This document shows, one piece after another, positions 12,158 to 32,513 of a DNA stretch of 64,000 nt (the stretch's first letter is position 1; each line of letters opens with the position of its first letter). The position numbers were made by a program, and so were the translations under genes. Source of the DNA: Terriglobia bacterium (GTDB lineage: Bacteria; Acidobacteriota; Terriglobia; Acidiferrales; UBA7541); NCBI GenBank assembly GCA_963695545.1, contig OY968796.1, forward strand, positions 2,400,001 to 2,464,000. Direction: 5' to 3'. The notes below the pieces were generated by a model that had not been told where the DNA came from, searched no databases, and worked only from the letters and a program-made list of their open reading frames with translations.

Positions 12158-13564
12158 ATGAGTCATAGACTCGCCTTTTTTTTGTTGTGTGCACTCCTGA
12201 TATTCCCTGCCATCTCATCGAAGGCCCAGGAGCCGCGAGACGCTCGGCTGTGGTTGACGACTGCGGATCGATCCTCGTTGTTCGCTCTGCAAACGCCGCC
12301 CCTGCAGTTCTCTGAATCAAGCGACGCGCTTCCCGTCGTCGACGTGAACGACATGGCGCAGTATCAGACCATCGACGGTTTCGGTCTTGCTCTGACAGGT
12401 GGGAGCGCGCAGCTTCTTATGCGTATGGATCCCGCTCAGAGGACCTCTCTGCTAAAAGAACTCTTCGGGACCCAAGAGGGAGACATTGGCGTCAGCTATC
12501 TAAGGGTGACGATCGGCTCCTCTGATATGAATGACCATGTGTTTTCCTACGACGATTTGGCGGACGGAGAAACCGATGTGGATCTGGCCAAATTCAGTCT
12601 GGCCCCTGACCTTGCCGATGTGATCCCCGTACTGAAAGAAATTCTGGCGATCAATCCCGGAATCAAAATACTTGCCTCTCCGTGGTCAGCTCCAGCCTGG
12701 ATGAAAACGAATGACAACTCGAAAGGAGGGAATCTGAAGCCCGAGTATTACGGCGCGTATGCGACGTATTTGGTGAAGTATATCGAAGGCATGAAAGCCG
12801 AAGGCATCACGATCGACACCATCACCATAGAGAATGAGCCCTTGAATCCGAAGAACACGCCGAGCATGGTGATGTTCGCGCCGGAGGAGGACGCATTCAT
12901 CGCAAAGAATCTCGGACCCGCGTTTCAGAAGGCCGAAATCCACACGAAGATACTCTTGTACGATCACAATCCCGACGTTCCATCGTATCCTCTGTCGATT
13001 CTGGCGGACGCCGATGCCAGCAAGTATGTCGATGGCACCGCCTTTCACCTATATGGCGGGGAAGCCTCCACGTTGACGGACGTGCATGATGAATATCCGA
13101 ACAAAAATTTGTACATGACCGAGCAGTCGATAACCGGAGGCCGGCGGGGCCCGCTCGATATCGCTGCGTCCGTTGGCCGGGTGCTGATCGGCGCGACCCG
13201 GAACTGGAGCCGCAACGTACTCCTGTGGAACCTTGCCGCCGACCCGAATTACGGGCCGCACACCAATAACGGCGGATGCACAGGGTGCCAGGGCGCGATC
13301 ACTCTCGACGGCAATACGGCAACTCGAAACTTGGCTTACTACGCGCTTGCGCACTTTTCGACATTTGTGCCGCCCGGTTCTGTGCGGGTTGGGTCAAGTG
13401 AAATGGAGCAACTATCAACCGTAGCTTTTCTTACGCCTGACGGGAAGATGGTGCTGGTCGTATCAAATACCGGGAACTTCTCAAAAACGTTCGACGTGAG
13501 GTACCACGGCAAATCATTCACGACGACGCTGCCTGAAGAATCCGTGGGAACCTATGTCTGGTGA
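12158..13564 (+). CDS. Secreted glycoside hydrolase family 30 (beta-1,6-glucanase/glucosylceramidase-like)
   Basis: QTIDGFG, ASPWSAPAWMK, ENEP, AFHLY and MTE motifs; signal peptide. Confidence 0.93.
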   Translation: MSHRLAFFLLCALLIFPAISSKAQEPRDARLWLTTADRSSLFALQTPPLQFSESSDALPVVDVNDMAQYQTIDGFGLALTGGSAQLLMRMDPAQRTSLLKELFGTQEGDIGVSYLRVTIGSSDMNDHVFSYDDLADGETDVDLAKFSLAPDLADVIPVLKEILAINPGIKILASPWSAPAWMKTNDNSKGGNLKPEYYGAYATYLVKYIEGMKAEGITIDTITIENEPLNPKNTPSMVMFAPEEDAFIAKNLGPAFQKAEIHTKILLYDHNPDVPSYPLSILADADASKYVDGTAFHLYGGEASTLTDVHDEYPNKNLYMTEQSITGGRRGPLDIAASVGRVLIGATRNWSRNVLLWNLAADPNYGPHTNNGGCTGCQGAITLDGNTATRNLAYYALAHFSTFVPPGSVRVGSSEMEQLSTVAFLTPDGKMVLVVSNTGNFSKTFDVRYHGKSFTTTLPEESVGTYVW

Positions 13565-13829
13565 ACGCGAAGCGGAGCAGGGGAGAAGCGCTACGCCGAC
13601 GAGTTGATCTTTGGTTTCGCAGCGGTTCGATACTTGCGACTGTCGGATGTCCCGCAGAACGTGCGTGCTTCATCGCATGTTGGCCGGGTAAGCTGTCGCA
13701 ACATCCGATGTGCCCGCACTCTGCACATCGGCGCAGATGGAGCCACCATCCGCCCGAAGCGAGGCACTCCTTGCAACCGTTCCCGCTTGGTTTTGCAGCA
13801 GGATTGATTCCGGGCTGGTGAGATTCCAC
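13518..13829 (-). pseudogene. UBP-type zinc finger protein, C-terminally truncated
   Basis: GCKECL..WWLHLRRCAECGHIGCCDS..HA..H...GHP...SIEP, followed by an unrelated tail that runs into the convergent GH30 gene. Confidence 0.65.
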
Positions 13830-18826: not shown

Positions 18827-19543
18827 TTAGATTCGCGCCGCGACTTCCGTGCCAGCCGCTGCGAAAACCGAATTCACTTCCGACTCCGCAATCTCCACCA
18901 GGCAACGAACGACGTCGGGGTCAAACTGCGTTCCGCTCGACGCGAGCAGCCTGCGGATTCCTTCCTCAAAGGGAAGGCCTTGCCGGTAGGGCCGTGAGGA
19001 GACCATGGCGTCAAACGCGTCGATCACCGAGACGATGCGCGAGCCGATCGGTATCTCGCTCTTGGCCAGGCCCGCGGGGTAACCCGTTCCGTCAAAATTT
19101 TCGTGGTGATGCAACGTGAACAGGCTGGCCGTCTCGAATCCGGGAAGCATCCGCAGAATCGCCCAACTATATTCTGGATGTTTCTTGACGATCGCGTATT
19201 CTTCCTCGGTCAACCGCGACGGCTTGTTCAGAATCGCGTCGGGCACGCCGACCTTACCGACGTCGTGAAGCAGCGCGGCCACTTCCATGTCCGGCAGATC
19301 CTTTTGGTCGAAGCCCATGTCCTGAGCGACGCGCATGGCCCATTCCGCCAAGCGGGTGCTGTGCACTCCGGTGTTCAGATCCTTCAGATCAAGCAGCTGA
19401 TTGAAGGCGCACACAACCGAAGACCGCAGTTCGGAGACTTGATCTTCCAATCTCTTGATCCGCAACGTCCCCGGCGCCCACGATGGGACGATCGCGGGCG
19501 CGGGAGCCGGGGCGAAATCACGGGATAAGGCCATGGGGCTCAT
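18827..19543 (-). CDS. Stand-alone HD-GYP domain phosphodiesterase
   Basis: HSTRLA, LLHDVGK, HHHENFDGTGYP and DAFDAMVSSRPYR motifs; ATGA overlap with the S8 gene. Confidence 0.92.
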   Translation of the reverse strand: MSPMALSRDFAPAPAPAIVPSWAPGTLRIKRLEDQVSELRSSVVCAFNQLLDLKDLNTGVHSTRLAEWAMRVAQDMGFDQKDLPDMEVAALLHDVGKVGVPDAILNKPSRLTEEEYAIVKKHPEYSWAILRMLPGFETASLFTLHHHENFDGTGYPAGLAKSEIPIGSRIVSVIDAFDAMVSSRPYRQGLPFEEGIRRLLASSGTQFDPDVVRCLVEIAESEVNSVFAAAGTEVAARI

Positions 19544-20877
19544 CTGCCTTCTGAGGCCTCAAGCCACGCTTGTATGGCGGTGAAAATGTCCAAGCGTCCA
19601 TTGTTCAGGTTTGGCGTCAGCCGCACGCCGTGGGAAATAGCGGATGCCGCCTGTGATTGATTTACGGGAGCGCGCGCGTCGATCAGAAGCGCCGCCGAGC
19701 CGGTCACGAGCGGGCAGCTAAACGACGTACCGGACCCGCTGGCATACGTGCCGCCGGGATACGTGCTGACGATGTTTTCTCCCGGTGCGCCGATCCAGAC
19801 GTCGGGCGTGCCGTAGTTCGAGAAAGTTGAGATCGTGTCGGAGTCAGAGGTCGATGCGATGCCCATCACGGAATTCGTAAGCGCCGCCGGGTAGGCTGCG
19901 GCGTTTGTGGTGCTATTGCCGGCCGCGGCCACCAGCACGACGCCCGATTGCGTGGCATAGGAGACTGCCGAAGACAGCGCTTGAGAAGGAGTCGTGAAGT
20001 CGAAGCTCATGTTCACGGCGTTGGCGTTGTTCTGCACCGCGTAGTACAGCGCCGCGACGATGTTGGAAAGGTAGCCTTCGCCGTTCGCCGAGAACGCCTT
20101 GAGCGGCAGAATCTTGGCCGTTGGCGCGACCAGGTGAATCAATCCGGCTGTCATGGTGCCGTGGCCGAAATCAGAGTAGGGGCCTCCGTCGAGTACGGCG
20201 ACGGTCCGCTGATCCAGCACGGCGACGGTTCGCTGTTGCACAACGGCGGGCTGCTCCTGCTGTGAGCCGCTATCGCTGCTGGTGTCTTGCAGCGCAGGAA
20301 CATCGAGCCATTCGGATGCGCCGGGTTGGTTTCGCGTGAAATCGTATCCGGGCAGCAGCACGCGGTAAAGCGCCGGATGGTATGGATCGACGCCGGTGTC
20401 AATGTCCGCGACAATTACGCCGGTCCCGGAGACGTTGAATGCTTGTTGCGAATTCTGCAGCTGAATGATTTCCGTCGCGGGCTGATCCACGTAGCCTTCG
20501 GTAACCGTGCTTCCATAATAGTTGACCGGAACCGAATCGTAGAGACCCGAGGTATTGGTCGGCACCGGACCGACCGGCAATGGCAAGAGCTGATCAACCT
20601 CGACGCTCGTGATTCCCAGTAGGCGTTCCAACAGATTGAGCACGCCGCCGACGAGGTTGGCCAATAGATTTTTATTCGAGGTCACCAGAAATGTTTTGCC
20701 GATCGCGCCGTCGAGCGAACCCTGCACCTGACACCCGGCGGAAAGACAGAGGTTTAGGACTGAATCAAGGCCCTTCGTCGTCTGCACGATATACCGCTGT
20801 TGGGCCGACGCCGGTATTGCTCCGAGCAAAGAAAAAAAGACGACCAATATGATTAAGCGGCGCTTCAGTGTGGACAT
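19540..20877 (-). CDS. Secreted S8 (subtilisin-like) serine peptidase
   Basis: Signal peptide (KRRLIILVVFF...ASA); catalytic triad DIDTG / HGT / GTSFSCP; oxyanion AAAGN. Confidence 0.93.
   Translation of the reverse strand: MSTLKRRLIILVVFFSLLGAIPASAQQRYIVQTTKGLDSVLNLCLSAGCQVQGSLDGAIGKTFLVTSNKNLLANLVGGVLNLLERLLGITSVEVDQLLPLPVGPVPTNTSGLYDSVPVNYYGSTVTEGYVDQPATEIIQLQNSQQAFNVSGTGVIVADIDTGVDPYHPALYRVLLPGYDFTRNQPGASEWLDVPALQDTSSDSGSQQEQPAVVQQRTVAVLDQRTVAVLDGGPYSDFGHGTMTAGLIHLVAPTAKILPLKAFSANGEGYLSNIVAALYYAVQNNANAVNMSFDFTTPSQALSSAVSYATQSGVVLVAAAGNSTTNAAAYPAALTNSVMGIASTSDSDTISTFSNYGTPDVWIGAPGENIVSTYPGGTYASGSGTSFSCPLVTGSAALLIDARAPVNQSQAASAISHGVRLTPNLNNGRLDIFTAIQAWLEASEGR
20188..20235 (-). repeat. 24-bp tandem duplication encoding QRTVAVLD twice
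   Basis: cag cga acc gtc gcc gtg ctg gat / cag cgg acc gtc gcc gta ctc gac. Confidence 0.95.
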
Positions 20878-21024
20878 CACCGTTTCTCTTTTCTCCCTCA
20901 GTGGCCGACTGCCGGTCTCTTGCCGAGAGCCACCGAGCGAAGTGACAGTTTCGCGTACCCTCGCTCGGGCCAACAATGGTACAAGGCTCCCATCTGCGGA
21001 TGTTGCGGTTCTAGTACCTTTTTC

Positions 21025-21663
21025 CTACCGTTTCGTTGTTGCTCCATCCAGTGGCACCAGTATCCTGGTGTCCTCACCCACGTGGACGGAGAGGAGTATT
21101 CCTGCCTTAAATTCAAGTTCTAGCTGGAATTCGCCGAATCCGTTGGTCTCCACCTCGTGTCTCGACTCGTGTTGATCCTTGTCGTGTCCGGAAACTACAA
21201 ATACGCGGGCGCCTGCTACCGCCTTGGCGTGCTTGGATGAATCGAGCACCTGGCCGGCCACCCAGACGCGGCTCGAGCCCGGTATCGCCTCGATTCTGAA
21301 ATCAACAAATATCCGCCCCGAACGATAAAGGATCACTCGCGGCGAGTGGCTCGCTGAACGGAAGCCCATCGCGGTGGACCCGGCGAAACTGTCTAGAACG
21401 AGCTCCGCCATCACGGTGAGCGGCGAGCGAATCGTCGGCAATCCGCCGAGCGCGCCGACTCCTTTCACCGTACGCACTAGATCCTCCGGAGCCTGATGCT
21501 CCGCGGCTTGCGACGCCGTACGTGCCGTGCGAGTCCAGAAATCCAGTGTGACCCTGCATTCCTTACAACCTGACGCGAGGTGTCGTTCCGCAGCTTCCCG
21601 CTCTTCCTGACTGCTGCTTCCGCGCACATAGTCGATCCATTGCTCAGCCGCAAAATGCTTCAC
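21025..21663 (-). CDS. Soluble zinc-binding anti-sigma-like protein with C-terminal beta-sandwich
   Basis: H...W.DY...ERHLASGCKEC (zf-HC2-like); no transmembrane segment; C-domain GQVLD...VAGARV...TNGFGEF; GGAGG RBS. Confidence 0.7.
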   Translation of the reverse strand: MKHFAAEQWIDYVRGSSSQEEREAAERHLASGCKECRVTLDFWTRTARTASQAAEHQAPEDLVRTVKGVGALGGLPTIRSPLTVMAELVLDSFAGSTAMGFRSASHSPRVILYRSGRIFVDFRIEAIPGSSRVWVAGQVLDSSKHAKAVAGARVFVVSGHDKDQHESRHEVETNGFGEFQLELEFKAGILLSVHVGEDTRILVPLDGATTKR

Positions 21664-21784: not shown

Positions 21785-24649
21785 TTACAGTATCTTACCG
21801 ACAAGAATAAACGGGGCCCAAAAGCACGGGTGGGGATGATGCTCGCGAAGCTCGATCATGGCGTACTGTAAGGCCACGGGCTTGCTCTCGCCCGCGCGCA
21901 AACGTCCGTAGAAACTTTTCATGAAATCGGCCGCAGTTTGATCGTGAATATCCCACAGTGTCAGAAGCAGGGTCTGCGCGCCTGCGCAGAGCAGCCCGCG
22001 AACAAGGCCGAGCAATTCATCACCGGCGGCAACAGCGTTCAATCCCGTCGCGCAGCCACTGAGTGCCACGAGTTCCGCAGGAAGATGCAGTTGATAAAGG
22101 TCGTAGAGATTCAGTCGCGAGTCGCCTAGGCGAATCCCGGAAAACAGCGGACTGTCGTGGCGAAATTCGCCGTGTGTGGCGATGTGAATGTAGCGGCTGG
22201 AAAGTCCGCGCTCCTTCAGCACGGCCAGCGTCGCGGCCTGGCCGACAAAACATTCGACCGAAGGGAGCACGCCTGAAACTGCGCGGACTTCGTCGAGAAT
22301 CGCCGGGGCATTTTCATCGGGAACGCCGAGAACCAGGGATTTTGTCGCTGCGCATTGCGGCTTTCGTTGAGAGAGCGCAAATAAGCTCGCGCTCGGTGCG
22401 TACGATAACGTGAACGAATCCATCAGGTACGCTGTTCCGTCGTGCAGAGCGTGAAATGGAATGTAATGTAGCGGCCCGTGAGGAACGATGATCACGTGAG
22501 AGCCCTGTAGCTTGTCGCGGATCGGCGCGATCAGTTCGTCATGAAGCCGCCGCAGGTGCGAAAGCGTCGCTTCAAGAAGCGAACTCTCAAAACGATCGGC
22601 ATATTCCTTGCCCAACCGGAATTTTGAGATCTGAAACTGCAACATGCGCAGCAAGTGCACCACTCGCGCGCCGAGGGAGACGCCGACGATCTCGATCGCA
22701 TCTCCGTGCAGCATGCACGCGACGATTTGGTCGCCGATCATGAAGTATTCGAGCAGCGTAGCGTCCGGCGGCAAGGAAGCTCGAATTGTTTCCAACGTGA
22801 CGCCCTCGCCTGATTCGAGCGTGTTCTCCTCGCTGGCCTGCATCTCGCGAATCGCCGATAGAAATTCCTCTTCGCGCGATTTCGATTGTTCTTGAAGCTT
22901 CGCAATTCGATCCGGTGAGCTTTCTTCCGGACGCAGCTGCTCGATATCGATCCGGTGGTAATACCAATTCAATTCTTCGCGAAGTTCGCGAATTCTGCGC
23001 ACCAGATCGCTTTGCCCCGTGTTATTCCCGGCCAGAATCGGTCCGCGCTGCAGCATAAGATCGGTGAGGCTGCGCGACTTTGCCTCTTCGATGCAGGCGA
23101 AGGCTTCCTCGAATCGCAGAGGGTCGGAAGAACGTTCGAGGCAGATTTCCACCAGACCTTCGTACACTCCGAGTTTGTTCTTGAGAAAAGCGATCTTTAC
23201 TTCTTCTCCTCGCAGACCGCTGCGAAGCTTTTCGAGTGCGGCGCGCGCGTGCTGAAACGATTCGTAGGCCGCCTCGTTGTTTCCACCCGCGCGATGGATT
23301 TCTCCCATCAGCGACCAGGCCTGGAACGCAAGTGGCGCGGCATCGAGCGGCTGCAGCCGTTCGAGCGCGGATCGGCACTCGCCACCCGCGGCGCGCCAAT
23401 CTCCGCTCCGGAGCGAAATCCGGGCCAGTAGCAGATCACAAAGCACGGCCTTGCCGATCAAAGCCGATGTCGAGAAAAATGAAAGAGCCTTTTGGCAGAG
23501 CCGGCGCGCTTCAAATAACCGCCCTTGTTCGCAGAGCAGCAGAGCCTGGTACAAGTCGAGCAGCCAGGGCCATACTAGATTTTTCTCGGCCACAAACTCC
23601 TTTCGCGCCGCGGTGAACAGCTCGATCGCTCGAAAGGCCTGTCCTTGCTGCCCCAGCGCGATGGCTTCGTTCGCGAGGCATTTGGCCGCCTCGTAGCCGG
23701 TGCCAACCTCCAGAAATAGCCGATGCGCGTCGTGCGCCGTCTCGACGGCCTCGCTGCTGAGGTTCAATTCCAAGTAAATTTCCGATAGATCCATGTGGCA
23801 GAGCGCAAGCTGATAGGTGTCGCCGTTCTTGCGGCACGCTTCCCGCGCAAACAGCAGACCCTGGATCGCCCGGCTGTATTCGCCGCGCAGGTAATAGAGA
23901 TAGGCGATGTTGTAATCGGCCATAGCCGTGAGCAGCGGCATGCCGCGCTTTTCGCAGAATTCACGCGCGTTTTGATATGTTTCGAGCGCGCGCGGAAAAT
24001 CATTCAGCGCAATCAGGCAAACCGCCAGATTGCTCAACACCGCAGCGATGGCTTCGTGATCGTCCCCGTTGCGCAGAAATTCGTAGGCGCGTTCGTAGCA
24101 CGCCAGGCCTTCTTCTAGACGATCCTGGCGGTGAAAAATGTTCCCGACGTTTATTTCGAGGCGCGCAATGCGCCGCGCATCGCCCAGTGCCGTAAAAATA
24201 GATCGCGCGCGATCCGCTGCGGCCAAGGCTCGTTCGTATTCTCCGAGCAAAATCATCGGTTGCAGGGAGCCGCTCAGACTGATTCCGATCTCGCGTTGGT
24301 TTCCCGCCTTTTCGTAGCTTTGCAGCGCCTGCTCGTGCAGTTCGATGGCCTCGTGATTTTTCCCAAGCGTGAACACGGCGTTGGCCTTCGCGCGCAGGCT
24401 TCGTCCGAGTGATTCCGGATTGTCAAGTTCGCGGGCGATCATCACGGCCGCATCGGCCAGCACCAGCGCAAGGTCCGCATCGATGCGCACCTGCGCGTGC
24501 ACGGCTTCCGCGAGTTGCTCGACGACCTCCGCATTTAGCAACTGTTGATGGCTCGCGAGGAATTGTTTGCGCGCCGCCTCGCTCGGAAGCTCGCTTAATT
24601 CCCGCAGGAAAGTTTGGAGAGGAGCCGAAATGTCGTTGATCGCGATCAC
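21785..24649 (-). CDS. TPR-CHAT (caspase-like) protease
   Basis: Long TPR array, then a CHAT domain with IVPHGPLHYIPF, HIATHG (His), LSGCATG (Cys), TLWDI and WAPF. Confidence 0.93.
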   Translation of the reverse strand: MIAINDISAPLQTFLRELSELPSEAARKQFLASHQQLLNAEVVEQLAEAVHAQVRIDADLALVLADAAVMIARELDNPESLGRSLRAKANAVFTLGKNHEAIELHEQALQSYEKAGNQREIGISLSGSLQPMILLGEYERALAAADRARSIFTALGDARRIARLEINVGNIFHRQDRLEEGLACYERAYEFLRNGDDHEAIAAVLSNLAVCLIALNDFPRALETYQNAREFCEKRGMPLLTAMADYNIAYLYYLRGEYSRAIQGLLFAREACRKNGDTYQLALCHMDLSEIYLELNLSSEAVETAHDAHRLFLEVGTGYEAAKCLANEAIALGQQGQAFRAIELFTAARKEFVAEKNLVWPWLLDLYQALLLCEQGRLFEARRLCQKALSFFSTSALIGKAVLCDLLLARISLRSGDWRAAGGECRSALERLQPLDAAPLAFQAWSLMGEIHRAGGNNEAAYESFQHARAALEKLRSGLRGEEVKIAFLKNKLGVYEGLVEICLERSSDPLRFEEAFACIEEAKSRSLTDLMLQRGPILAGNNTGQSDLVRRIRELREELNWYYHRIDIEQLRPEESSPDRIAKLQEQSKSREEEFLSAIREMQASEENTLESGEGVTLETIRASLPPDATLLEYFMIGDQIVACMLHGDAIEIVGVSLGARVVHLLRMLQFQISKFRLGKEYADRFESSLLEATLSHLRRLHDELIAPIRDKLQGSHVIIVPHGPLHYIPFHALHDGTAYLMDSFTLSYAPSASLFALSQRKPQCAATKSLVLGVPDENAPAILDEVRAVSGVLPSVECFVGQAATLAVLKERGLSSRYIHIATHGEFRHDSPLFSGIRLGDSRLNLYDLYQLHLPAELVALSGCATGLNAVAAGDELLGLVRGLLCAGAQTLLLTLWDIHDQTAADFMKSFYGRLRAGESKPVALQYAMIELREHHPHPCFWAPFILVGKIL

Positions 24650-25242
24650 GCGTGTCCCTGTGATTCAAGTTCCTTTCGCAACCGCTTCAGGCAGCGCCCG
24701 CGTATGAATCCGATCGATCCAGTGGCAATTCCCAGGCGCGCCGCGACTTCCGCGTACGGAAGGGCCGGCTCGTGAAAGAAAAGCATCTCCACCAGGCGCG
24801 CGCACCGAGGAGGCAGACCGGCCACGGCGTCGCGAAGAATTTGTTCCTGCTCTGCTTCCCGCAGAATCTGTTCGGAATCAAGCGCCGGGTTTCCGCGCGC
24901 CGGCGGCTCTTCGCCCTCCACTAGGTGAATTGAGCGCGATTCCAGGCGCTTCCATTGAATGCATTTGTGCGCGGACACCTGCATCAGCCACTTGGGAAGA
25001 GCTTTTGGCTCGCGGAGCGACCCGAGTTCTGAAAGTAGTTCCACGCAAACCGATTGGAAAATATCCGCCGCCGCATCCGGCCCCAATTGAAATTTGATCG
25101 GGATGGAATAGATCAAATTCTTATACTTGTCGACGAGGGCTTCCCAGGCTTCCTGGTTTCCATCGAGACATTCTCGCACCAGCCGTGTATCCGTCCATGG
25201 CGCGGTGGAGGGCAGTGCAACGTCGGTGAGAGGTGCGGTCAT
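24646..25242 (-). CDS. ECF RNA polymerase sigma factor
   Basis: DTRLVRECLDGNQEAWEALVDKY (region 2), LPPRC...YAEVAARLGIATGSIGFIRGRCL (region 4); ATG 25242 overlaps the SBP stop. Confidence 0.92.
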   Translation of the reverse strand: MTAPLTDVALPSTAPWTDTRLVRECLDGNQEAWEALVDKYKNLIYSIPIKFQLGPDAAADIFQSVCVELLSELGSLREPKALPKWLMQVSAHKCIQWKRLESRSIHLVEGEEPPARGNPALDSEQILREAEQEQILRDAVAGLPPRCARLVEMLFFHEPALPYAEVAARLGIATGSIGFIRGRCLKRLRKELESQGHA

Positions 25243-27047
25243 CGTGCCCCGCCGGCGGTGTCCTTGCGAACGAACAATTCTTCCGCGTTCCAATCCGCAT
25301 AAGGCGCAAGAATCGCGGGCTCGAAATTCCCAACGCTGTTTTTCGCCGCCAGCAATATGTTCGGACTCACCAGGAAGACAACGGGGACGTTTTGAGCGAC
25401 CAACTCCTGCACCTGATCGTAAATCTTCTTGCGCTCCGCGTACTGCGGCGAAACTTCCTGCTTGCGCATCAGTTCGTCCACTTCTGCTTCCCACGGCGTG
25501 GCCGGTTTGGTCTCCCCGAGATGCCACACGTGCGTACTGCCGTCCGACGTCCACACGTTCATTTCCGCGGTCGGGTCCGTGTCGCCGGTTCCGAGCGAGA
25601 GCAGGCACGCCTCGTAATTGAAAGTATTGAACACGCGATCCACCATGGACCGAAACTCCATCGAAACGACGTCGACATGCATCCCGAGCTGCGAAAGATC
25701 GTGCTGAATCATCGTGGCCATCTGCAGCCGTTGTGCGTTCGAGGAACTGGTGAGGATCGAGAATTCCACGGGCTGGCCGGTGCCGTCCTGAAGCGTTCCA
25801 TCGCTCTTCCAGGAAAATCCCGCTGCGGCCAGAAGTTGCCGCGCCTGTTCGAGGGATCGCGCAGGACGCGGCAGGTTTTGATCCATCCATCTCTTGTTTC
25901 CCGGCGTCACGTTGCCCCAGATCGGCGTGGCGCGCCTCTCGAAAACAAGCCGCACCATTGCGTCGCGGTCCACCGCGAGGGAAACGGCCTGCCGGAAGCG
26001 CACATCGCTGAACCAAATTTTCTTCCGAGCGATATCCGCAGGCTGATCGGAGGAAGGATCGTTCAAATTGAAAAATAGAAAGTTGTATTCGAGGCCGGGC
26101 CCAAGATCGTAAATCCTGTATCCGCCCGCATCCTTTTTTCCGTCCAGCAGACCGTAATTTTGCGCGCTGAATCGACTGAGCACATCGGTTTCGCCCGATT
26201 GGAATCGCAATACCTCCGCGTCCTCGCTGGCCACAAACAGATATGCGATCTCGTCGAGATACGGCAGGCGCTTGCCCTGGCCGTCTGTCTTCCAGTAGTA
26301 GGGATTGCGTTCCAACACAACACGTTGCCCCGGCACGTACTCCTTCAGTCGAAATGGGCCGAGCCCTGCAATTTGATTCGGAGCCACTGTCGTGCCCCAC
26401 GCGTCGCCCAACTTCCCCGCCAGGTACGCGCTCTCCAGCAGATGTTTCGGCAGGATCGCCACGCTATCGAACAGCCGTTCGGCCGCCGCATACGGCTCCG
26501 CCATCGAAAACTCCACTTGATCTTCCGCGAGCTTTCGCACCGCGATCGGTTTGTCGCCAACGATCAGCAGATCGCGCTGCGGAGAATCCACCTTCTCATC
26601 CAGATACACTTGAAAACTGAACACCACGTCATCCGCGGTAAATGGATATCCGTCGGAGAATTTCACGCCATGACGAAGTTGCAGCACGTATCGCCGGCCG
26701 TCCGGCGATACCTTCCACGATGTCGCCAGCGCAGGTTCTGTGCCTTGGGATAACCGGTTGATGTGGATCAGGTCCGCCATCATCAATCCCAGGATTTCTT
26801 TCGAAGACCCATCCACCGCGAGAACCGGATTGAATGTTTTCGGCTCGGACCGCAACGCAAAAACCAAGCGCCCTCCGAACGTGCCTTCCGGAGCCGTTGA
26901 GCGAACCAATTCTTCGGACGTTGCGGAGTCCTGCGGGGTCGGTGACGCGGCGCGCACACCCGCCAGTGCCAGCGCAGCTGCCACCAACAGGAACAGAGAT
27001 GTTCTCTTCCGGGTGGAAATGTTCTCCCTGCGCGGCGATTTATTCAC
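25239..27047 (-). CDS. Peptide/nickel ABC transporter substrate-binding protein (family 5)
   Basis: EPKTFNP, PALATSW, VKFSDGYPFTADDVVFS, GLGPFRL and RNPYYW motifs; GTG 27047 overlaps the permease stop. Confidence 0.93.
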   Translation of the reverse strand: MNKSPRRENISTRKRTSLFLLVAAALALAGVRAASPTPQDSATSEELVRSTAPEGTFGGRLVFALRSEPKTFNPVLAVDGSSKEILGLMMADLIHINRLSQGTEPALATSWKVSPDGRRYVLQLRHGVKFSDGYPFTADDVVFSFQVYLDEKVDSPQRDLLIVGDKPIAVRKLAEDQVEFSMAEPYAAAERLFDSVAILPKHLLESAYLAGKLGDAWGTTVAPNQIAGLGPFRLKEYVPGQRVVLERNPYYWKTDGQGKRLPYLDEIAYLFVASEDAEVLRFQSGETDVLSRFSAQNYGLLDGKKDAGGYRIYDLGPGLEYNFLFFNLNDPSSDQPADIARKKIWFSDVRFRQAVSLAVDRDAMVRLVFERRATPIWGNVTPGNKRWMDQNLPRPARSLEQARQLLAAAGFSWKSDGTLQDGTGQPVEFSILTSSSNAQRLQMATMIQHDLSQLGMHVDVVSMEFRSMVDRVFNTFNYEACLLSLGTGDTDPTAEMNVWTSDGSTHVWHLGETKPATPWEAEVDELMRKQEVSPQYAERKKIYDQVQELVAQNVPVVFLVSPNILLAAKNSVGNFEPAILAPYADWNAEELFVRKDTAGGAR

Positions 27048-28075
27048 GACACAACTCCACCGGCACGAGCCGCCAACACGCTCGACACGCTGTTGTATGC
27101 GAGAAATACCGGCACCAGCACGAGAGCCGGCAAATACATCCACCATTCCGTCTGCAGCACGCGCACCTGCTGCAGGCTTGCCAGCAGATTGCCCAAACTC
27201 GGAGCGGGCTCGCCCACGCCCAGCCCGAGGAACGAGAGAAACAGTTCGGCAAGAATGAACTGAGGAACCAACAACGCTGCTTGCGTCCAGATCACCGGCA
27301 TGGCTTGCGGCAAAACGTGTCGCCGGAGCAGATATGCGTCCGACGCTCCGAATCCGCGCGCCGCGCTCACAAAGTCGCGTTCCTTCGCCGCCAGCGTGAT
27401 TCCGCGCACCAGTCGCGCCGGCCGCGCCCATCCCACAATTCCGATAACCGTGATGATCAACAGGAAAGCCTGCGCCGGACTCACGTGCAGCGGCAGCGTC
27501 GCGCGTACGGCAAACAGCAAAAATAGCCACGGCACGGCCATAAATAATTCTGTCCAGCGCATGAGCAAGGAATCCACCAATCCGCCCGCGTAGCCTGCGA
27601 GTCCGCCGATCACTAAGCCGAGCAAGAGTGAAACCCCCGCAGCCAGTAGTCCTGCATATAGCGAGAGCTGCGCTCCGAACACCATCCGCGAGAAAAGATC
27701 TCTTCCGAACTCGTCTGTGCCGGCAAGGAAAATGTGCGCGGGCGCGCTCGCCCCGAACAAATGGCGATCCGCGGAAAATATTCCCAACACACGATACTCA
27801 GGTCCGCGTACAAACAATCGGATCGGATAGGTGGCGGTTTTCACTTCCTCATATTCGTCCGGATTCGTCGGCGATTCTTCGGCGGCGTAAACGAATGGCC
27901 ACGCATGCAGCTTGCCGCGCCCATCGACCAGATGAATCCGCGTCGGCGCGCTGGCGGCGAAATCACGGTCTTGCTCGGCCGGATCGTACGGCGCAAAAAA
28001 TCCGGGCACGAGCAACGCGGCATGAACTGCCGCGAGAAAGATTAGAGATGCCACGAAGATACGATTGCTCCGCAC
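27044..28075 (-). CDS. Peptide ABC transporter permease, DppC/OppC-like
   Basis: GTDEFGRDLFSR, EAA-loop FVSAARGFGAS, LSFLGLG. Confidence 0.93.
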   Translation of the reverse strand: MRSNRIFVASLIFLAAVHAALLVPGFFAPYDPAEQDRDFAASAPTRIHLVDGRGKLHAWPFVYAAEESPTNPDEYEEVKTATYPIRLFVRGPEYRVLGIFSADRHLFGASAPAHIFLAGTDEFGRDLFSRMVFGAQLSLYAGLLAAGVSLLLGLVIGGLAGYAGGLVDSLLMRWTELFMAVPWLFLLFAVRATLPLHVSPAQAFLLIITVIGIVGWARPARLVRGITLAAKERDFVSAARGFGASDAYLLRRHVLPQAMPVIWTQAALLVPQFILAELFLSFLGLGVGEPAPSLGNLLASLQQVRVLQTEWWMYLPALVLVPVFLAYNSVSSVLAARAGGVVS

Positions 28076-28076
28076 G

Positions 28077-29039
28077 CTACTCCGTCCGAATCCGCGGATC
28101 GCTCCAGCAAAGAAGCGCATCCGCAACGAGGTTTCCGGCCACGAGCAGCACCGACGAAAACATGATTCCGCCGACCACGACGTTGAGGTCCCGCGAAAAC
28201 GCCGCTTCAAGCAAGAGCGGCCCCAGACCCGGCCAGCTCAGAATCACTTCCACCAGCATGGAGGCGCTCAGCAGTGACGCCAGCGAAAATCCGAACAGCG
28301 TCAGCAACGGGTTCGCAGCCGCCGGCAATGCGTGGCGGAACAACAGCCGCCGGCGCGAAATCCCATGAGCCTTTGCGGCGCGGAAGTACGGCGCGTGGAG
28401 CACTTCGACGATCGCCGCGCGAACGTGGCGGAACAGCACGGGCAACATGATGATCACCAGCGCGATCGTTGGAATGAGCAGGTGCACCGCGAGGTCCTGA
28501 AACTTTTTAATGGGACTTAGATCCGCAAAGTCGAGAGAAACCATTCCCCCGGTCGGCAACAAGCCTGTTCGCGCGGCAAATAAAAGCAGCGCCAGTGCCA
28601 GCAAAATATCCGGCACAACGAGCATTCCCGAGGAACACAAGCTGAGCAAATGGTCTGTCCACTTTCCTTCATGTGTCGCGGCCCAGATTCCCAACGCCAA
28701 TGCCAAAAACCAACTGACCAGCGTGGCCGTTACCGTGAGCAACAAAGTGTTTCGCACTCGCACCAGCAACAGCGGCGCGACGGGTGCGTTGTATGCGAAC
28801 GATTTCCCCATATCGCCATGCGCCACGCCCGCCAGCCACTCCGCGTACCGCGCAGGCAACGATCGATTCAATCCGTATTGCGACCGCAGCGCGGCCACGG
28901 TCTCCGCGCGAACCTCGGGCTGCAGTTGCATTTCGGAAAAGAAATCCCCGGGCGCGAGCTGCATCAATGCGAAGGAGATGAACGACACACCGAGCAGCAG
29001 AAAAACGCCGTGAAGGAGGCGCCGAGTGAGATATCGCAT
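28077..29039 (-). CDS. Peptide ABC transporter permease, DppB/OppB-like
   Basis: YLTRRLL, LAPGD, RHALP, VEVILSWPGLG and DPRIR motifs. Confidence 0.93.
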   Translation of the reverse strand: MRYLTRRLLHGVFLLLGVSFISFALMQLAPGDFFSEMQLQPEVRAETVAALRSQYGLNRSLPARYAEWLAGVAHGDMGKSFAYNAPVAPLLLVRVRNTLLLTVTATLVSWFLALALGIWAATHEGKWTDHLLSLCSSGMLVVPDILLALALLLFAARTGLLPTGGMVSLDFADLSPIKKFQDLAVHLLIPTIALVIIMLPVLFRHVRAAIVEVLHAPYFRAAKAHGISRRRLLFRHALPAAANPLLTLFGFSLASLLSASMLVEVILSWPGLGPLLLEAAFSRDLNVVVGGIMFSSVLLVAGNLVADALLCWSDPRIRTE

Positions 29040-30809
29040 CTACTCGACCTCCTTCGCGGTCAGCGCGCCGGTCAAGTTCGCTTGCGCTTCATCCTCGTGC
29101 TCGCCGACTTCCGCAAAGTTCCTGTCGAGGAGTGAATCGCCGCGGCTGGATCTCGCCACAATTTGACCGTCGCGCAGTACGGCGATTTCGTCTGCGACTC
29201 GCGCCGCCAGTTCAAGATCGTGTGTGATGAATAGATATGTAAGGCCACGGTTAGCCCGCAATTCGCGGAGCAGGTCGCTCAGCTGCGCCTGCAAGAGCCG
29301 ATCAAGGCCGGAAAATGCTTCATCGAAGATCATGAACTCCGGCTCGAGGATGAGCGCACGTGCGATCGCCAGCCGCTGTCGCTGCCCGCCGCTAAATTCC
29401 GCGGGCAGGCGATCTCCTTGCGAGCGACTCAGTCCAACTTGCTCCATCATCGCGAGCGCCCGCTCCCGCCGCTCCTCTTGCGTGCCGGCACTTTCGATCG
29501 TCAGTGGTTCGGAAACGGCTTGCCACGCGCGCATCCCCGGATTTATCGAGGAGACGGGATCTTGAAAAATCAGCTGGATGCGCCGACGGTGCCGACGAAG
29601 CGCAGCGTTTGGCATGCGAGTGAGATTTTCCCCAGCGAGCCATATCTCGCCGGCGTCGGGCCTGGTCAGCATCGCCAAGCAGCGGGCCAGAGTTGACTTC
29701 CCGGATCCCGATGGGCCCACGAGCCCCACAGCGCCGCCGCGCGCGACGCGTAGACTTAAATCGCGCAGCGCCGGCACGACCACGCGCTTTCGCGAAAACA
29801 GCTGACGCCGCGAATATAGCTTGTGAACGTTGCGCGCTTCGATCAAGGATTGCTCATCGATCGAACCGGCCGCGGAAAAACTTCCTGGCGCAAGATCCAC
29901 GCTGCGAGTGGAGCGGAAGTTGGAAAGCACACCACTTGCCGGATCGTCTCCGCGCCACAATCCCGACGCGAGCAATTCGCGCGTGTATGCGTGCATCGCC
30001 CACTTCGGAAGCTGTTGCCATTCGCCCTCTTCGACGATTCGCCCGTCGTGCATGACCAGAACTCTGCTCGCCAATCGCGCCAGGACTCGCGGATCATGGC
30101 TGATCAAGAGCAGCGCCATGCGAAAGCGATCTCGCAGTTGTGCAAGCAAATCGAGAATCTCCGCCTGCACGGCCCAATCGAGCGACGCTGTCGGTTCGTC
30201 CGCGACGACGATCGCGGGCTGGCATGCGAGAGCCTGCGCGATCAACACGCGTTGTCTTTGTCCTCCGCTCAATTGATGCGGATAGGCGTCAAAAAATCGC
30301 TCGTTTCCCGAAAGGCGCACCGCTTCCAATAACGATTGCGCCTGCTCGACGCATTTCTTTCCGCTCCATGATCGCTTGTGCGCACGGATCACTTCCGCCA
30401 CCTGTGTGCCAATACGCATCACGGGGTTGAGCGCCAGGTTCGGTTCCTGGAAGATCATCGAGATCTCGGCGCCGCGAATCTCGTCCATCTCTCGCTCGCT
30501 TAAGCCGATGAGTTCGCGATCTCGAATGCGAATGGATCCGCTCACGCGGCTCTTAACGGGAAGCACTTGGAGCAGGGCTAAAGCGATGGTCGTTTTCCCG
30601 CATCCCGACGCGCCCATCAGGCCGAGGCATTCCCCAGAGTTCACTTCGAAATTGATCTGGTCTATCGCGGTGTGGGGTGTGGCGCCTGCTGGCGAATAGG
30701 AGACGCTCAAATCACGAACGCGCAGCAGCGATCCCGCTGCGTGCGAGGCATCGGTCACGGCGACACGGTTGTGGCTTCCCAAGCCCATTTGCACAAGCCG
30801 GCGTTGCAC
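29040..30809 (-). CDS. Fused double-domain peptide ABC ATPase (start uncertain; GTG 30758 is an alternative)
   Basis: Two Walker A motifs (GASGCGKT, GPSGSGKS), two signature motifs (LSGGQRQR, FSGGQRQR), DEPT/DEAF, SHD/THD. Confidence 0.93.
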   Translation of the reverse strand: MQRRLVQMGLGSHNRVAVTDASHAAGSLLRVRDLSVSYSPAGATPHTAIDQINFEVNSGECLGLMGASGCGKTTIALALLQVLPVKSRVSGSIRIRDRELIGLSEREMDEIRGAEISMIFQEPNLALNPVMRIGTQVAEVIRAHKRSWSGKKCVEQAQSLLEAVRLSGNERFFDAYPHQLSGGQRQRVLIAQALACQPAIVVADEPTASLDWAVQAEILDLLAQLRDRFRMALLLISHDPRVLARLASRVLVMHDGRIVEEGEWQQLPKWAMHAYTRELLASGLWRGDDPASGVLSNFRSTRSVDLAPGSFSAAGSIDEQSLIEARNVHKLYSRRQLFSRKRVVVPALRDLSLRVARGGAVGLVGPSGSGKSTLARCLAMLTRPDAGEIWLAGENLTRMPNAALRRHRRRIQLIFQDPVSSINPGMRAWQAVSEPLTIESAGTQEERRERALAMMEQVGLSRSQGDRLPAEFSGGQRQRLAIARALILEPEFMIFDEAFSGLDRLLQAQLSDLLRELRANRGLTYLFITHDLELAARVADEIAVLRDGQIVARSSRGDSLLDRNFAEVGEHEDEAQANLTGALTAKEVE

Positions 30810-31004: not shown

Positions 31005-31718
31005 CTAGTTAGGGCCGTGACGCTGTGGGGATGCCACCGTTGCCTTTAACCCCTCCCGAGCGGCAGGCCGCGGGCCATCGGGAATTCGCCAAGCGGTGAC
31101 CACATAGCGACGCGGGGCGGAGCCGATGAAGTGAAATGGATAGCACGTGACGAGCGTGAGCGACTGCCGGCCTTGCGGGCGCAGGACCTCGATGTCGGTC
31201 GGGTCGACGATGGCGGTGGTCGCTACGCGATAGTGATATGTACCCCTCGGCGTTTCCACGCCGATTTCATCGCCCGGTCGCAGCGCTCCGAGGTTGCGAA
31301 AAAAAGTGTCGCGATGCCCGGCGAGCCCCATCGCGCCGGAGCCGTCCGGGAAGGAAGTTCCAGGAATGTGGCCGACGGCGCGACGCAACGTTGTTTCGTC
31401 ATCGCCTTCCAGAACTATTGCAGAGAGGCCGATCTCGGGGATCGTCAACTTGCCGAGTAACTCGTCCGGTTGCACCGCTTGCACCGCCGCGGCTCCGCGG
31501 CGTAACGCAGCGAGGCGACGCGCTTGCACGGCCTGAAAAATTAGCCTGTCTGCCGAGACGAAAAGGAACCAGCCGAGCCCCGCCACCGCGGCGACCCAGC
31601 ATAAATACTCGAGCCAGCGCAAAAAGTTATCCTGCCAGACGGAGGCATGCATCGGCGGAGCCGCGGCGATATCGCGGTCGGCCGATGCAAGCACGTGCAT
31701 GGAATCTCGCGTGGCCAT
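31005..31718 (-). CDS. Class D-like sortase
   Basis: N-terminal TM, VGHIPGT, AGHRDTFF (His), TLVTCYPF (Cys), PRRYVV (Arg); start uncertain. Confidence 0.92.
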   Translation of the reverse strand: MATRDSMHVLASADRDIAAAPPMHASVWQDNFLRWLEYLCWVAAVAGLGWFLFVSADRLIFQAVQARRLAALRRGAAAVQAVQPDELLGKLTIPEIGLSAIVLEGDDETTLRRAVGHIPGTSFPDGSGAMGLAGHRDTFFRNLGALRPGDEIGVETPRGTYHYRVATTAIVDPTDIEVLRPQGRQSLTLVTCYPFHFIGSAPRRYVVTAWRIPDGPRPAAREGLKATVASPQRHGPN

Positions 31719-31781
31719 GGCTTGAAGAGTGTCGCCGGGCGCCCCCAACAGCGCCGCCCGGCGACTCTCGGCGCGTCGTAC

Positions 31782-32513
31782 TTAAGCGCGCGCTCTGCGC
31801 CGAAGCACGAGTCCGACTGCCACGCACAGCAGTCCCGACAACCCAATTAACGGGAGCGAGCTGGCTGTTTGAGGCAATTGCGCCGAATTCGTGGTGGAGG
31901 TTGTAGGGTTGTCCGCAGGCGCCGGCGTTGCGGTGCTGTTGGCGTTGGTTTGCCCTGCGGATGTGTCTGGCGTCGTAGCGGGAGTCGAGCCAGTTTGAGG
32001 AGCCGTGGTCTGCGGCGCTGTGGTTTGAGGCGTCACCGCTGGCGTTGACTGACTCTGTGACGCAGGCTGATCAGATTGCGCTGCGGGCATCTCGCTCGCG
32101 TTGACTTGCGCCATTTGCGCAGGTTGCGAATTCGGATAGATAAATTCCTGTCCGAAATTGTCGCCCGGGTAGAACCACTCGGCGATGGCCGGTGGCTGGT
32201 CCGCCGGGCGTTCCGCAAACCGGATCACTGAGCCGTCGTTCGCGTCGAGCCGGAAATCGGGAACCGCGAGAATGGTCGTGATCAGGCCACTTTGGTCATG
32301 GTTAAAAATCTGCACGATATCTCGGTTGGATGGGCCGTCGGCAAGTTTGAAAACGTAGGTGCCGGGCCCGAGAACCGCTCCGGGAACCTGCACGGAATTT
32401 GGAAAAGTCAAAACCGTCAACTTATCCCATTCGCCGGCGCGAGCTGTCTGATTCAGCGCGCAAAAAACCATGGCCACCGAAAACAGAAGCGCCAGCGTTC
32501 GAATTGCCTTCAT
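31782..32513 (-). CDS. Secreted sortase substrate with LPQTA sorting signal
   Basis: Signal peptide, globular domain, P/T/S/Q-rich linker, then LPQTA, a hydrophobic helix and RRRARA. Confidence 0.88.
   Translation of the reverse strand: MKAIRTLALLFSVAMVFCALNQTARAGEWDKLTVLTFPNSVQVPGAVLGPGTYVFKLADGPSNRDIVQIFNHDQSGLITTILAVPDFRLDANDGSVIRFAERPADQPPAIAEWFYPGDNFGQEFIYPNSQPAQMAQVNASEMPAAQSDQPASQSQSTPAVTPQTTAPQTTAPQTGSTPATTPDTSAGQTNANSTATPAPADNPTTSTTNSAQLPQTASSLPLIGLSGLLCVAVGLVLRRRARA

Follow-up and report, generated by a model that had tools for sequence, protein, structure and literature searches.

A tandem octapeptide in a secreted subtilase as the candidate ligand of a linked TPR-CHAT protease in Acidobacteriota

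Introduction

Members of the RRNPPA family of Bacillota (Rap/Phr, NprR, PlcR, PrgX, Rgg and AimR) signal, as far as the cited text describes them, through a Sec-exported propeptide of 50-120 aa with 1-4 copies of a 5-10-residue peptide, duplicated pheromones being found in Phr propeptides. The peptide is re-imported by Opp and bound by a cytoplasmic TPR receptor with a backbone-anchoring Asn, peptides and receptors forming matched pairs, and the effector part is an N-terminal HTH or three-helix bundle (PMC11343458). TPR domains joined to a CHAT protease occur in other settings. In the ECF54 neighbourhood, an ECF sigma factor lies beside a subtilase, a TPR-CHAT protein and a small partner, and proteolytic control was proposed; the group is given as 100% Actinobacteria and without an anti-sigma factor, and the sections cited mention no peptide, importer or ligand (PMC7826278, PMC8999054). 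In the Craspase system (Csx29/Csx30/CASP-sigma), an allosterically gated TPR-CHAT protease, triggered by target RNA via Cas7-11, cleaves a sigma-factor inhibitor in the account cited (PMC10028731). DdvA/DdvS of Myxococcus xanthus also couples a TPR-CHAT to an ECF sigma and anti-sigma factor; DdvA is a single transmembrane protein for which the cited portion names no activating signal (PMC11506125). Finally, GmSubPep, a 12-residue defence signal of soybean, is a bioactive peptide embedded in the S8 region of a secreted subtilase, described in the cited portion as one cryptic plant sequence in the PA domain with no receptor known (PMC6770897).

Here, a stretch of 64,000 nucleotides (the window) from the 4.16-Mb genome of a Terriglobia bacterium is analysed, in which a subtilase with a tandemly repeated peptide lies next to a TPR-CHAT protease gene. 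Coordinates are positions within the window, and residue numbers refer to the 445-aa S8 subtilase unless another protein is named. The locus is predicted to share with RRNPPA systems the exported precursor, the short peptide, its re-import, the groove Asn residues and the repeated copies, and its cytoplasmic TPR domain appears matched to the cognate peptide by co-variation. Yet a 445-aa protease whose triad is intact takes the part of precursor, in place of a dedicated propeptide gene, and the unit occurs in the genome only inside this S8. A precursor can hold 10 copies or more, a C-terminal caspase-like CHAT domain without any HTH family match serves as effector, and the phylum is Acidobacteriota. 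In its mode of action the system resembles RRNPPA signalling, though it stands outside that family.

The neighbourhood of subtilase and TPR-CHAT genes resembles that of ECF54, while the homologs are mostly acidobacterial, a zinc-finger anti-sigma motif is conserved, and an Opp-type importer and an HD-GYP gene are present. Like Craspase, the locus is predicted to encode a gated TPR-CHAT that cuts a sigma-factor inhibitor, here of the anti-sigma zinc-finger type, but the TPR-CHAT protein falls outside type III-E (its Csx29 match scores 41 bits, where the cut-off is 300), the cassettes showed no Cas genes, and none of the five core proteins matched Cas7-11 or Csx30. Compared with DdvA, the TPR-CHAT and anti-sigma proteins are separate and soluble, and a candidate ligand exists; compared with GmSubPep, the peptide is present in several homogenised copies alongside a linked candidate receptor. 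Membership of the cyanobactin PatA/PatG protease family is not indicated (67 bits against a cut-off of 421), and PatG, which may still hold a similar insertion, is absent among the 50 fold matches listed for the S8 model. In the literature searched, of which subscription journals and supplements were mostly beyond reach, no description was found of this peptide, this circuit or a peptide-activated TPR-CHAT. Within that literature, the locus is a new, undescribed variant of TPR-peptide signalling.

Organisation and conservation of the cassette

The genes of the cassette all lie on the reverse strand. They encode a two-domain ABC ATPase (29040-30809), two ABC permeases (28077-29039 and 27044-28210), a family-5 (Opp/Dpp-type) substrate-binding protein (SBP) with a signal peptide (25239-27026, start approximate; PF00496), an ECF sigma factor of 198 aa (24646-25242) whose stop overlaps the start of the TPR-CHAT gene, the cytoplasmic TPR-CHAT protease of 954 aa proposed as receptor (21785-24649), a soluble anti-sigma-like protein of 212 aa (21025-21663), the secreted S8 subtilase (19540-20877, ATG at 20877) and a stand-alone HD-GYP-type phosphodiesterase of 238 aa (18827-19543; PF13487 and NCBIfam), whose start overlaps the S8 stop and which is a candidate second output of the circuit. 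The S8, TPR-CHAT and anti-sigma genes are each single-copy in the genome. A homolog search confirmed 416 stretches, and in the best 80 loci, with record titles mostly from Acidobacteriota, the arrangement is well kept: among loci with enough flanking sequence, TPR-CHAT is present in 77/77, the anti-sigma-like gene in 74/77, the ECF gene in 61/65 and the SBP gene in 62/64, while HD-GYP is found in 80/80. An upstream sortase and an LPQTA protein were considered as further members and rejected (present in 0/16 extended loci), as was a defence-system identity, for which PADLOC gave generic sub-domain matches only. A scan for sigma-70 promoters and terminators returned hits at chance level.

The TPR-CHAT protein matches PF12770 (203 bits) and TPR_12 in Pfam. 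Its presumed catalytic dyad consists of C866, which is invariant, and H826, kept in at least 90% of 92 homologs; by its TPR array and this His-Cys dyad the protein is assigned as a TPR-CHAT protease. No signal sequence was found in a hydropathy scan. Its profile matches the structures of RapF and RapJ (E about 7e-8), and the TPRs of LGN/GPSM2 score far higher. The anti-sigma-like protein carries a His-x4-Cys-x2-Cys zinc motif (H28, C33, C36) kept in 99-100% of 112 homologs, followed by a linker with the invariant G100-x-R102 (both residues in 100%) and a conserved C-terminal domain. ECF54 genes have a carboxypeptidase-regulatory-like domain in their neighbourhood, and the C-terminal domain here gave no Pfam match of any kind. 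The protein has a weak NCBIfam anti-sigma match and falls in an Atlas cluster of which 27% of the proteins carry zf-HC2. G100-x-R102 is a candidate cut site of the CHAT domain.

The subtilase and its active-site insert

The S8 protein scores 118 bits against PF00082 (cut-off 21.8) and comprises an N-terminal hydrophobic signal seen in a hydropathy scan (residues 1-25), a propeptide domain of the pro-subtilisin fold (residues about 26-101) and the catalytic domain, with the triad placed by alignment of relatives at D160 (20398-20400), H239 (20161-20163) and S385 (19723-19725) and the oxyanion Asn at N321. These residues are kept in 103-104 of 104 aligned relatives. An early structure model built from a 24-row alignment had a pLDDT of 42.5 and was replaced by a later one, which adopts the pro-subtilisin fold (Z 44, rmsd 2.0 across 337 residues to pro-Tk-subtilisin). 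By triad, oxyanion Asn and the modelled fold with its propeptide, the protein belongs to the S8 subtilase family, and protease activity is predicted. At the Gly166-equivalent position, 74 of the 104 relatives carry Val, which, judging from subtilisin mutagenesis, would presumably narrow the S1 pocket towards small residues.

Homolog alignment places an insert of 56 residues (181-236; 20170-20337) between the catalytic Asp and His segments, ending three residues ahead of His239. It consists of a conserved start, a variable S/Q/D-rich spacer and two copies of the peptide QRTVAVLD, and the loop holding the copies is an insertion relative to solved subtilisins. Copy 1 (residues 215-222; 20212-20235) is modelled as a strand over residues 217-221, and copy 2 (residues 223-230; 20188-20211) as a helix ahead of the catalytic His helix. 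An earlier note on this DNA had described an exact 8-aa duplication before the catalytic His, after a flexible S/Q-rich stretch. This holds: the S/Q/D-rich stretch is the part of lowest model confidence (pLDDT 67 for residues 201-210), while the blocks from 211 to 240 reach 81-93. As the note had said, the two DNA copies, of 24 bases each, differ at four positions, every one of them synonymous; each is also a third codon position. A scan of stop-free stretches of at least 150 aa for units with at least five residue types showed no further exact 8-residue tandem in the genome of 4.16 Mb, and QRTVAVLD is absent from the rest of it. The tandem is beyond chance.

Selection on the peptide unit

All 120 closest S8 homologs, the window counted, carry the unit, in seven variants, and the copies within a protein are mutually identical in 117. 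Across the 80 loci and the window, 86 of 87 S8 genes encode identical peptide copies whose DNA differs at 2-10 bases. In all 46 genes with Ser3, copy 1 uses an AGY codon and copy 2 a TCN codon; since both copies hold the same residue through different codon families, gene conversion is excluded in those genes. Gene conversion or recent duplication as the general source of copy identity was likewise rejected: in three of the four unit types, the copies within a gene diverge from each other at least as much as a given copy does between genes. Judged from these codons, the unit is shown to be under selection as a peptide and not as DNA, in line with what had first been proposed from the window's own two copies.

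Repeat copy number in homologous subtilases, a check that the earlier note had suggested, was followed in 202 sequences comprising distant representatives and class-wide loci. The core copy number is 1-10 in 174 of the 175 inserts that could be parsed (a few of them mis-parsed or duplicated), and the multi-copy inserts hold 69 distinct 7-mer variants. Within-protein identity by unit position is 0.49 at position 0, 0.97 at 1, 1.00 at 2, 0.85 at 8 and 0.41 at 9, positions 3-7 being 1.0 by construction. These values favour the register Q1 to D8 and disfavour one shifted by a residue, with a cut after Leu only, which may still apply to the clade f101. Position 8 is Asp in most units (256 of the copies tallied) and is often Asn, Glu, Trp or Gly. 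In most copies a hydrophobic residue followed by Asp or Asn stands at both unit ends, which suggests a single cutting rule. Clade f101 has spacers of about 10 residues between copies, as well as 7-residue tandem units ending in Phe, and because of the latter the mature peptide is taken to be 7 or 8 residues long. In four loci (L102, L140, L166, L179), the last unit has decayed to another sequence of similar length, so that this position probably has a structural role as well and excision there would nick the enzyme. No stand-alone small precursor gene was found in the 4.16-Mb genome, and none that convinces at 12 sister loci from other classes.

A second site for the unit in the propeptide linker

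In some relatives, the unit also occurs between the propeptide and the mature enzyme, at a site corresponding to residues 107-114 of the window S8 (20536-20559). Among the 96 relatives scored (out of 104, 8 being unparsed), 20 carry a perfect 7/7 match in this linker and none a 5/7 or 6/7 match, and one (L102) holds up to 15 copies. The window S8 has no unit copy in its linker, which would hold at most a decayed one. The linker is structurally unrelated to the active-site loop, and the same unit is found at both. In the S8 of the 12 sister loci, the insert repeat is absent. A TPR-CHAT gene adjoins S8 in nine of the 12, and a further locus has a partial TPR-CHAT in the opposite orientation. In several of these sister S8s, the linker carries a similar unit once or twice, with doubling in L378 and L385, and from this pattern we infer that the linker is the ancestral unit site. 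The sister cassettes suggest that the signal may have begun as a piece cut beside the propeptide during subtilisin maturation and was later copied into the active-site loop.

Co-variation between the peptide and the TPR groove

The earlier note had suggested looking for co-variation of the repeat with the cognate SBP and TPR. Of 140 TPR-CHAT/S8 pairs, those in which CHAT was covered almost in full and the unit could be parsed were kept (125) and, with the window, gave 126 cassettes (three labels hand-corrected). On a tree built from S8 without its insert and the CHAT catalytic half, the branches counted were those on which a change at a peptide position coincides with one in a protein column. 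Out of 5256 TPR-CHAT tests, only two pairs reach the Bonferroni level, namely residue 280 with position 2 (8/9 changes, p 4.8e-9) and residue 166 with position 6 (11/15 changes, p 4.2e-8); position 4 comes next, below that level, with residues 199 (5e-5) and 203 (2.5e-4). In a pooled set of 161 cassettes, on a tree from residues above 400, the figures become 18/20 changes (p 8e-15) for position 6 with residue 166 and 10/12 (p 3e-9) for position 2 with residue 280, and both hold under the other parsimony resolution. A simple parsimony model underlies the p-values, which are to be judged against pseudo-peptide controls, of which 0/80 columns reach 1e-5 in the 161 cassettes.

No co-change with the peptide at the Bonferroni level was detected in the SBP (98 cassettes), the anti-sigma-like protein (112), the ECF factor (107), HD-GYP (98), the two permeases (94 and 90) or the S8 body, nor in the CHAT catalytic half. 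The expectation of co-variation was thus borne out for the TPR and not for the SBP, and because the SBP does not co-vary in 98 cassettes, specificity is assigned, on alignment evidence, to the TPR rather than the importer. The suggestion that the unit mimics a substrate of TPR-CHAT finds no echo in the catalytic half, while that of a TPR-CHAT ligand is supported by the groove co-variation and by the genome-matched extra subtilases described below.

The pairings make sense chemically. Size complementarity shows in Phe6, paired with Gly166 in 7/7 cassettes from three separate clades, in Val4, which goes with Ala, Gly or Met at 203 in 28/28, and in Ala4, which goes with Val or Ile in 83/84. Val6 is paired with Ile, Val or Leu at 166 in 59/59, and Arg2 with Gln280 in 7/7, from two clades, one of them the window, that both trees keep apart. 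As a held-out test, 40 new loci were fetched, of which 36 had both parts and one duplicate was dropped. All 35 follow the pairing at position 2 (Ser2 with His280 in 13/13, His2 with Val, Ile, Met or Leu280 in 22/22), and among them are Ser2 cassettes for which the closest CHAT of the earlier set belongs to the His2 type. L332 and L335 depart from the pairings at positions 4 and 6. In deeper sister cassettes, Arg2 is found with Leu, Gly or Gln280, Ser2 with Tyr280 (L389, L392) and Phe6 with Met, Val, Thr or Asn166. The rules hold in part there and fade with depth.

In the window protein, the specificity residues are I166 (24152-24154), A203 (24041-24043) and Q280 (23810-23812). By alignment, residues 166, 203 and 210 are TPR positions 5, 2 and 9, which are among the concave ligand-specificity positions in the cited account (PMC1261162), and residue 280 lies just ahead of the first helix of a repeat, roughly at TPR position 33. 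The groove further holds the conserved residues R86, N167, N207, N247 and D287. The three Asn are TPR consensus positions as well, so their invariance alone is weak evidence. Across the cassettes, Arg86 is kept in 126/126, Arg123 in 122/126, Asp287 in 126/126 and Glu320 in 123/126; the window protein has Ile at 123. Modelling of TPR residues 1-490, from a 92-row alignment, in complex with residues 200-229 of S8 gave a score of 0.02, which neither supports nor opposes binding.

Distribution and genome-matched paralogs

At a threshold of E 1e-60 or better, S8 matches occur in 90 of 401 sampled class genomes, all 90 of which also have TPR-CHAT, while 11 further genomes have TPR-CHAT without an S8 match; these tallies take in the unpublished genomes G414 and G470, and the repeat was confirmed in fetched loci only. 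In three genomes of the same genus no match was found, again with unpublished genomes in the tally. The system is patchy.

Where a locus holds a second S8, it shares the unit of the first (six loci). Beyond this, 13 extra S8 copies were compared in 11 genomes, with 23 of 25 sequences extracted and the partners in G551 and G518 taken regardless of cassette status. The extra copies are only 45-83% identical to the other S8 of their genome, over the 12 pairs measured. The nearest foreign S8 always has a different unit, yet 12 of the 13 match the unit of the other or cassette S8 of their own genome; the second S8 of G518 matches its own genome in one copy only. The earlier note had held that a repeat equally common in unlinked subtilases would speak against the idea. 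Unlinked paralogs do carry the unit, but they do not refute it, since the unit is the genome-matched one. Tandem cassettes (L241, L242, L279, L271, L273) have one unit each, the same holds for a pair of cassettes (L001, L019) from a single named assembly, and G958 has three S8s with differing units and two TPR-CHAT matches listed.

The family f101 has TPR-CHAT and a repeat-rich S8 without an adjacent importer, and no SBP orthologue was found in 5/5 genomes tested (best 30% identity). In most of its cassettes a cognate ECF gene is missing alongside, the partner protein has no zinc finger, and a kinase-like gene and a response regulator adjoin.

Proposed mechanism and alternative explanations

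The preferred reading, to which we give a probability of about 55%, is that the unit is a pheromone-like ligand, carried in a secreted subtilase and re-imported, which activates TPR-CHAT and leads to cleavage of the anti-sigma-like protein. The S8 protein would be exported by Sec, its signal being seen. Self-processing or turnover would then cut after the hydrophobic-Asp/Asn/Gln motifs flanking each copy to give Q1 to D8, or perhaps a trimmed 7-mer, and the linked Opp-type ABC system would carry the peptide to the cytoplasm. There it could lie extended in the concave TPR groove, with position 6 near residue 166, position 4 near 203/199, position 3 near 210/241 and position 2 near 280, its backbone held by the invariant Asn residues. 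The order 6-4-2 against 166-203-280 would make the peptide antiparallel to the repeats. Arg86 and Arg123 would sit near the peptide's C-terminal end and Asp287 and Glu320 near its N-terminal end, where they could hold the termini, a charge pattern that fits free ends. By analogy with Csx29/Csx30, CHAT would cut the zinc-finger anti-sigma factor and free the ECF sigma factor. Copy number may set the dose per enzyme molecule and sequence the pherotype. The parts of this reading differ in strength. That the unit is the ligand of TPR-CHAT is highly probable, and that it works as a free, imported peptide is probable. It is fairly likely that binding activates CHAT and that the anti-sigma factor is cut, by analogy most likely at the invariant Gly100-x-Arg102, and release of the unit by S8 itself is only somewhat favoured. 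Several observations run against the reading: copy 2 is packed, in the high-confidence model, as a helix that adjoins the catalytic His, the last unit has decayed in some homologs, f101 has neither an adjacent importer nor an SBP orthologue, the pairing rules fade with depth and have held-out exceptions, the TPR of the window has Ile123, and the subtilases of G518 and G958 depart from full genome matching.

Another possibility, which we regard as unlikely, is that the peptide serves as an alarm and not as a quorum signal, the S8 being a periplasmic bait or reservoir from which other proteases or envelope damage free the units, with no need for the peptide to leave the cell. Acidobacteria are diderm, and both S8 and SBP would thus be periplasmic. 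Moreover, no outer-membrane transporter was found among the 30 most recurrent neighbour clusters listed, release of the packed copy 2 may need unfolding, and no S8 residue co-varies with the peptide. Yet dozens of lineage-specific variants with matched receptors suit kin-specific signalling between cells better, and the conservation of the S8 triad in nearly all relatives also counts against a mere reservoir.

It could also be speculated that the peptide is the cognate ligand but turns TPR-CHAT off, as Phr does with Rap, so that sigma would be active at low peptide. Co-variation has no sign and cannot separate activation from inhibition, and the cited text reports Rap and AimR as inhibited by their own peptides, but it describes most RRNPPA receptors as peptide-activated (PMC11343458). 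Csx29 is described as resting until it meets target RNA (PMC10028731) and DdvA, with a misaligned dyad, as resting until activated (PMC11506125), in the portions cited, and we consider an off-switch rather doubtful.

A reading without any free peptide is improbable. Here, the TPR would bind the motif in intact or un-exported S8 as a monitor of secretion or folding, or the motif would be a substrate or decoy of CHAT cut after Asp. The predominance of Asp at position 8 and the f101 clade without a dedicated importer would fit. The frequent Asn, Glu, Trp or Gly at that position, the peptide importer linked in nearly all close loci, the confinement of Bonferroni-level co-change to the TPR and the signal sequence on S8, with none on the CHAT protein, argue against it.

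Finally, a purely structural or autoinhibitory role in the subtilase (lid helix, pseudo-substrate) or a neutral duplication would agree with the confident helix of copy 2 beside the active site and with the loop being an insertion relative to solved subtilisins, but is very improbable, as it cannot account for the same units at two unrelated sites, the parallel Ser codons, the genome-matched paralogs or the co-change with the groove of another protein and not with S8.

Implications

The preferred reading points to a peptide signal, undescribed in the literature searched, whose readout would be protein cutting in place of a DNA-binding receptor. In our estimate, the chances are even that the locus represents a class of caspase-like signalling that is gated by peptides and widespread in a diderm phylum, with a subtilase as precursor and perhaps maturase, dose set by copy number, dialect by sequence, and TPR-CHAT leading to proteolysis of a sigma inhibitor. 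No peptide quorum-sensing system in Acidobacteria, a phylum abundant in soil, was found in the literature searched. Nor does that literature, in the portions cited, name a peptide trigger for any TPR-CHAT, with RNA given for Csx29, no signal for DdvA and no ligand for ECF54. With a candidate ligand, candidate receptor residues and a candidate substrate site, the trigger of non-CRISPR TPR-CHAT proteases becomes testable. If the reading is true, the same linker may conceal the ligands of ECF54-type cassettes in other phyla, and the code 2/280, 4/203 and 6/166 would let matched peptide-protease switches be predicted. A family of matched peptide-activated proteases would be a useful toolkit.

Upstream region and neighbouring genes

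In the homologous loci L001-L080 and L105-L183, the interval between the genes encoding the zinc-finger anti-sigma protein and the secreted subtilase (S8) carries a conserved GTAC-N4-GTAC palindrome upstream of S8, followed downstream, still ahead of the S8 gene, by a CGTACYATT motif. The palindrome takes the form TTAC-N4-GTAA in the clade of L141 and L164, and in the corresponding interval of the window (20878-21024) GTAC words are kept and the spaced palindrome is absent. The region containing the palindrome and CGTACYATT may be a site bound by a regulator or an ECF promoter site. In several genomes (L046, L051, L054, L102, and L241) the cassette is broken by gaps of 1-5 kb between the TPR-CHAT and anti-sigma genes.

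Upstream of the operon, the window encodes a class D sortase and a secreted protein with an LPQTA tail (31005-32513, reverse strand). A family search with the LPQTA-tailed protein returned no match, and the pair is not conserved with the operon. A short ORF at 13518-13829 (reverse strand) starts with a Cys/His-rich, zinc-finger-like stretch that passes into unrelated-looking sequence; it may be frameshifted or truncated.

Variants of the subtilase and TPR-CHAT

Position 123 of the TPR-CHAT, the proposed peptide receptor, is Ile in the window (24281-24283, reverse strand) and Arg in 122 of 126 homologs, and this substitution may alter the hold on the peptide C-terminus. In the sister cassettes L375, L381, and L384, Arg86, Arg123, and Asn247 are all lost together from the TPR, and the S8s have a linker lacking an Asp-ending unit and bear C-terminal extensions. 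Another sister cassette is adjoined by an 83-aa ORF (L385:6946, forward strand); its beginning looks like a short leader, it contains repeats rich in G, S, and K, and we take it to resemble a RiPP-type precursor.

The f101 variant (L265-L273, L278, and L386-L388) has a partner protein without a zinc finger, and a kinase-like gene and a NarL-type regulator adjoin the cassette in place of an adjacent importer. Its S8s contain up to 10 spaced copies of the unit, and where cassettes occur in tandem, the units differ between them. Finally, P0150, P0172, P0177, and other long representatives are repeat-bearing S8s of 800-1800 aa with long C-terminal extensions, an architecture that suggests surface-displayed forms.
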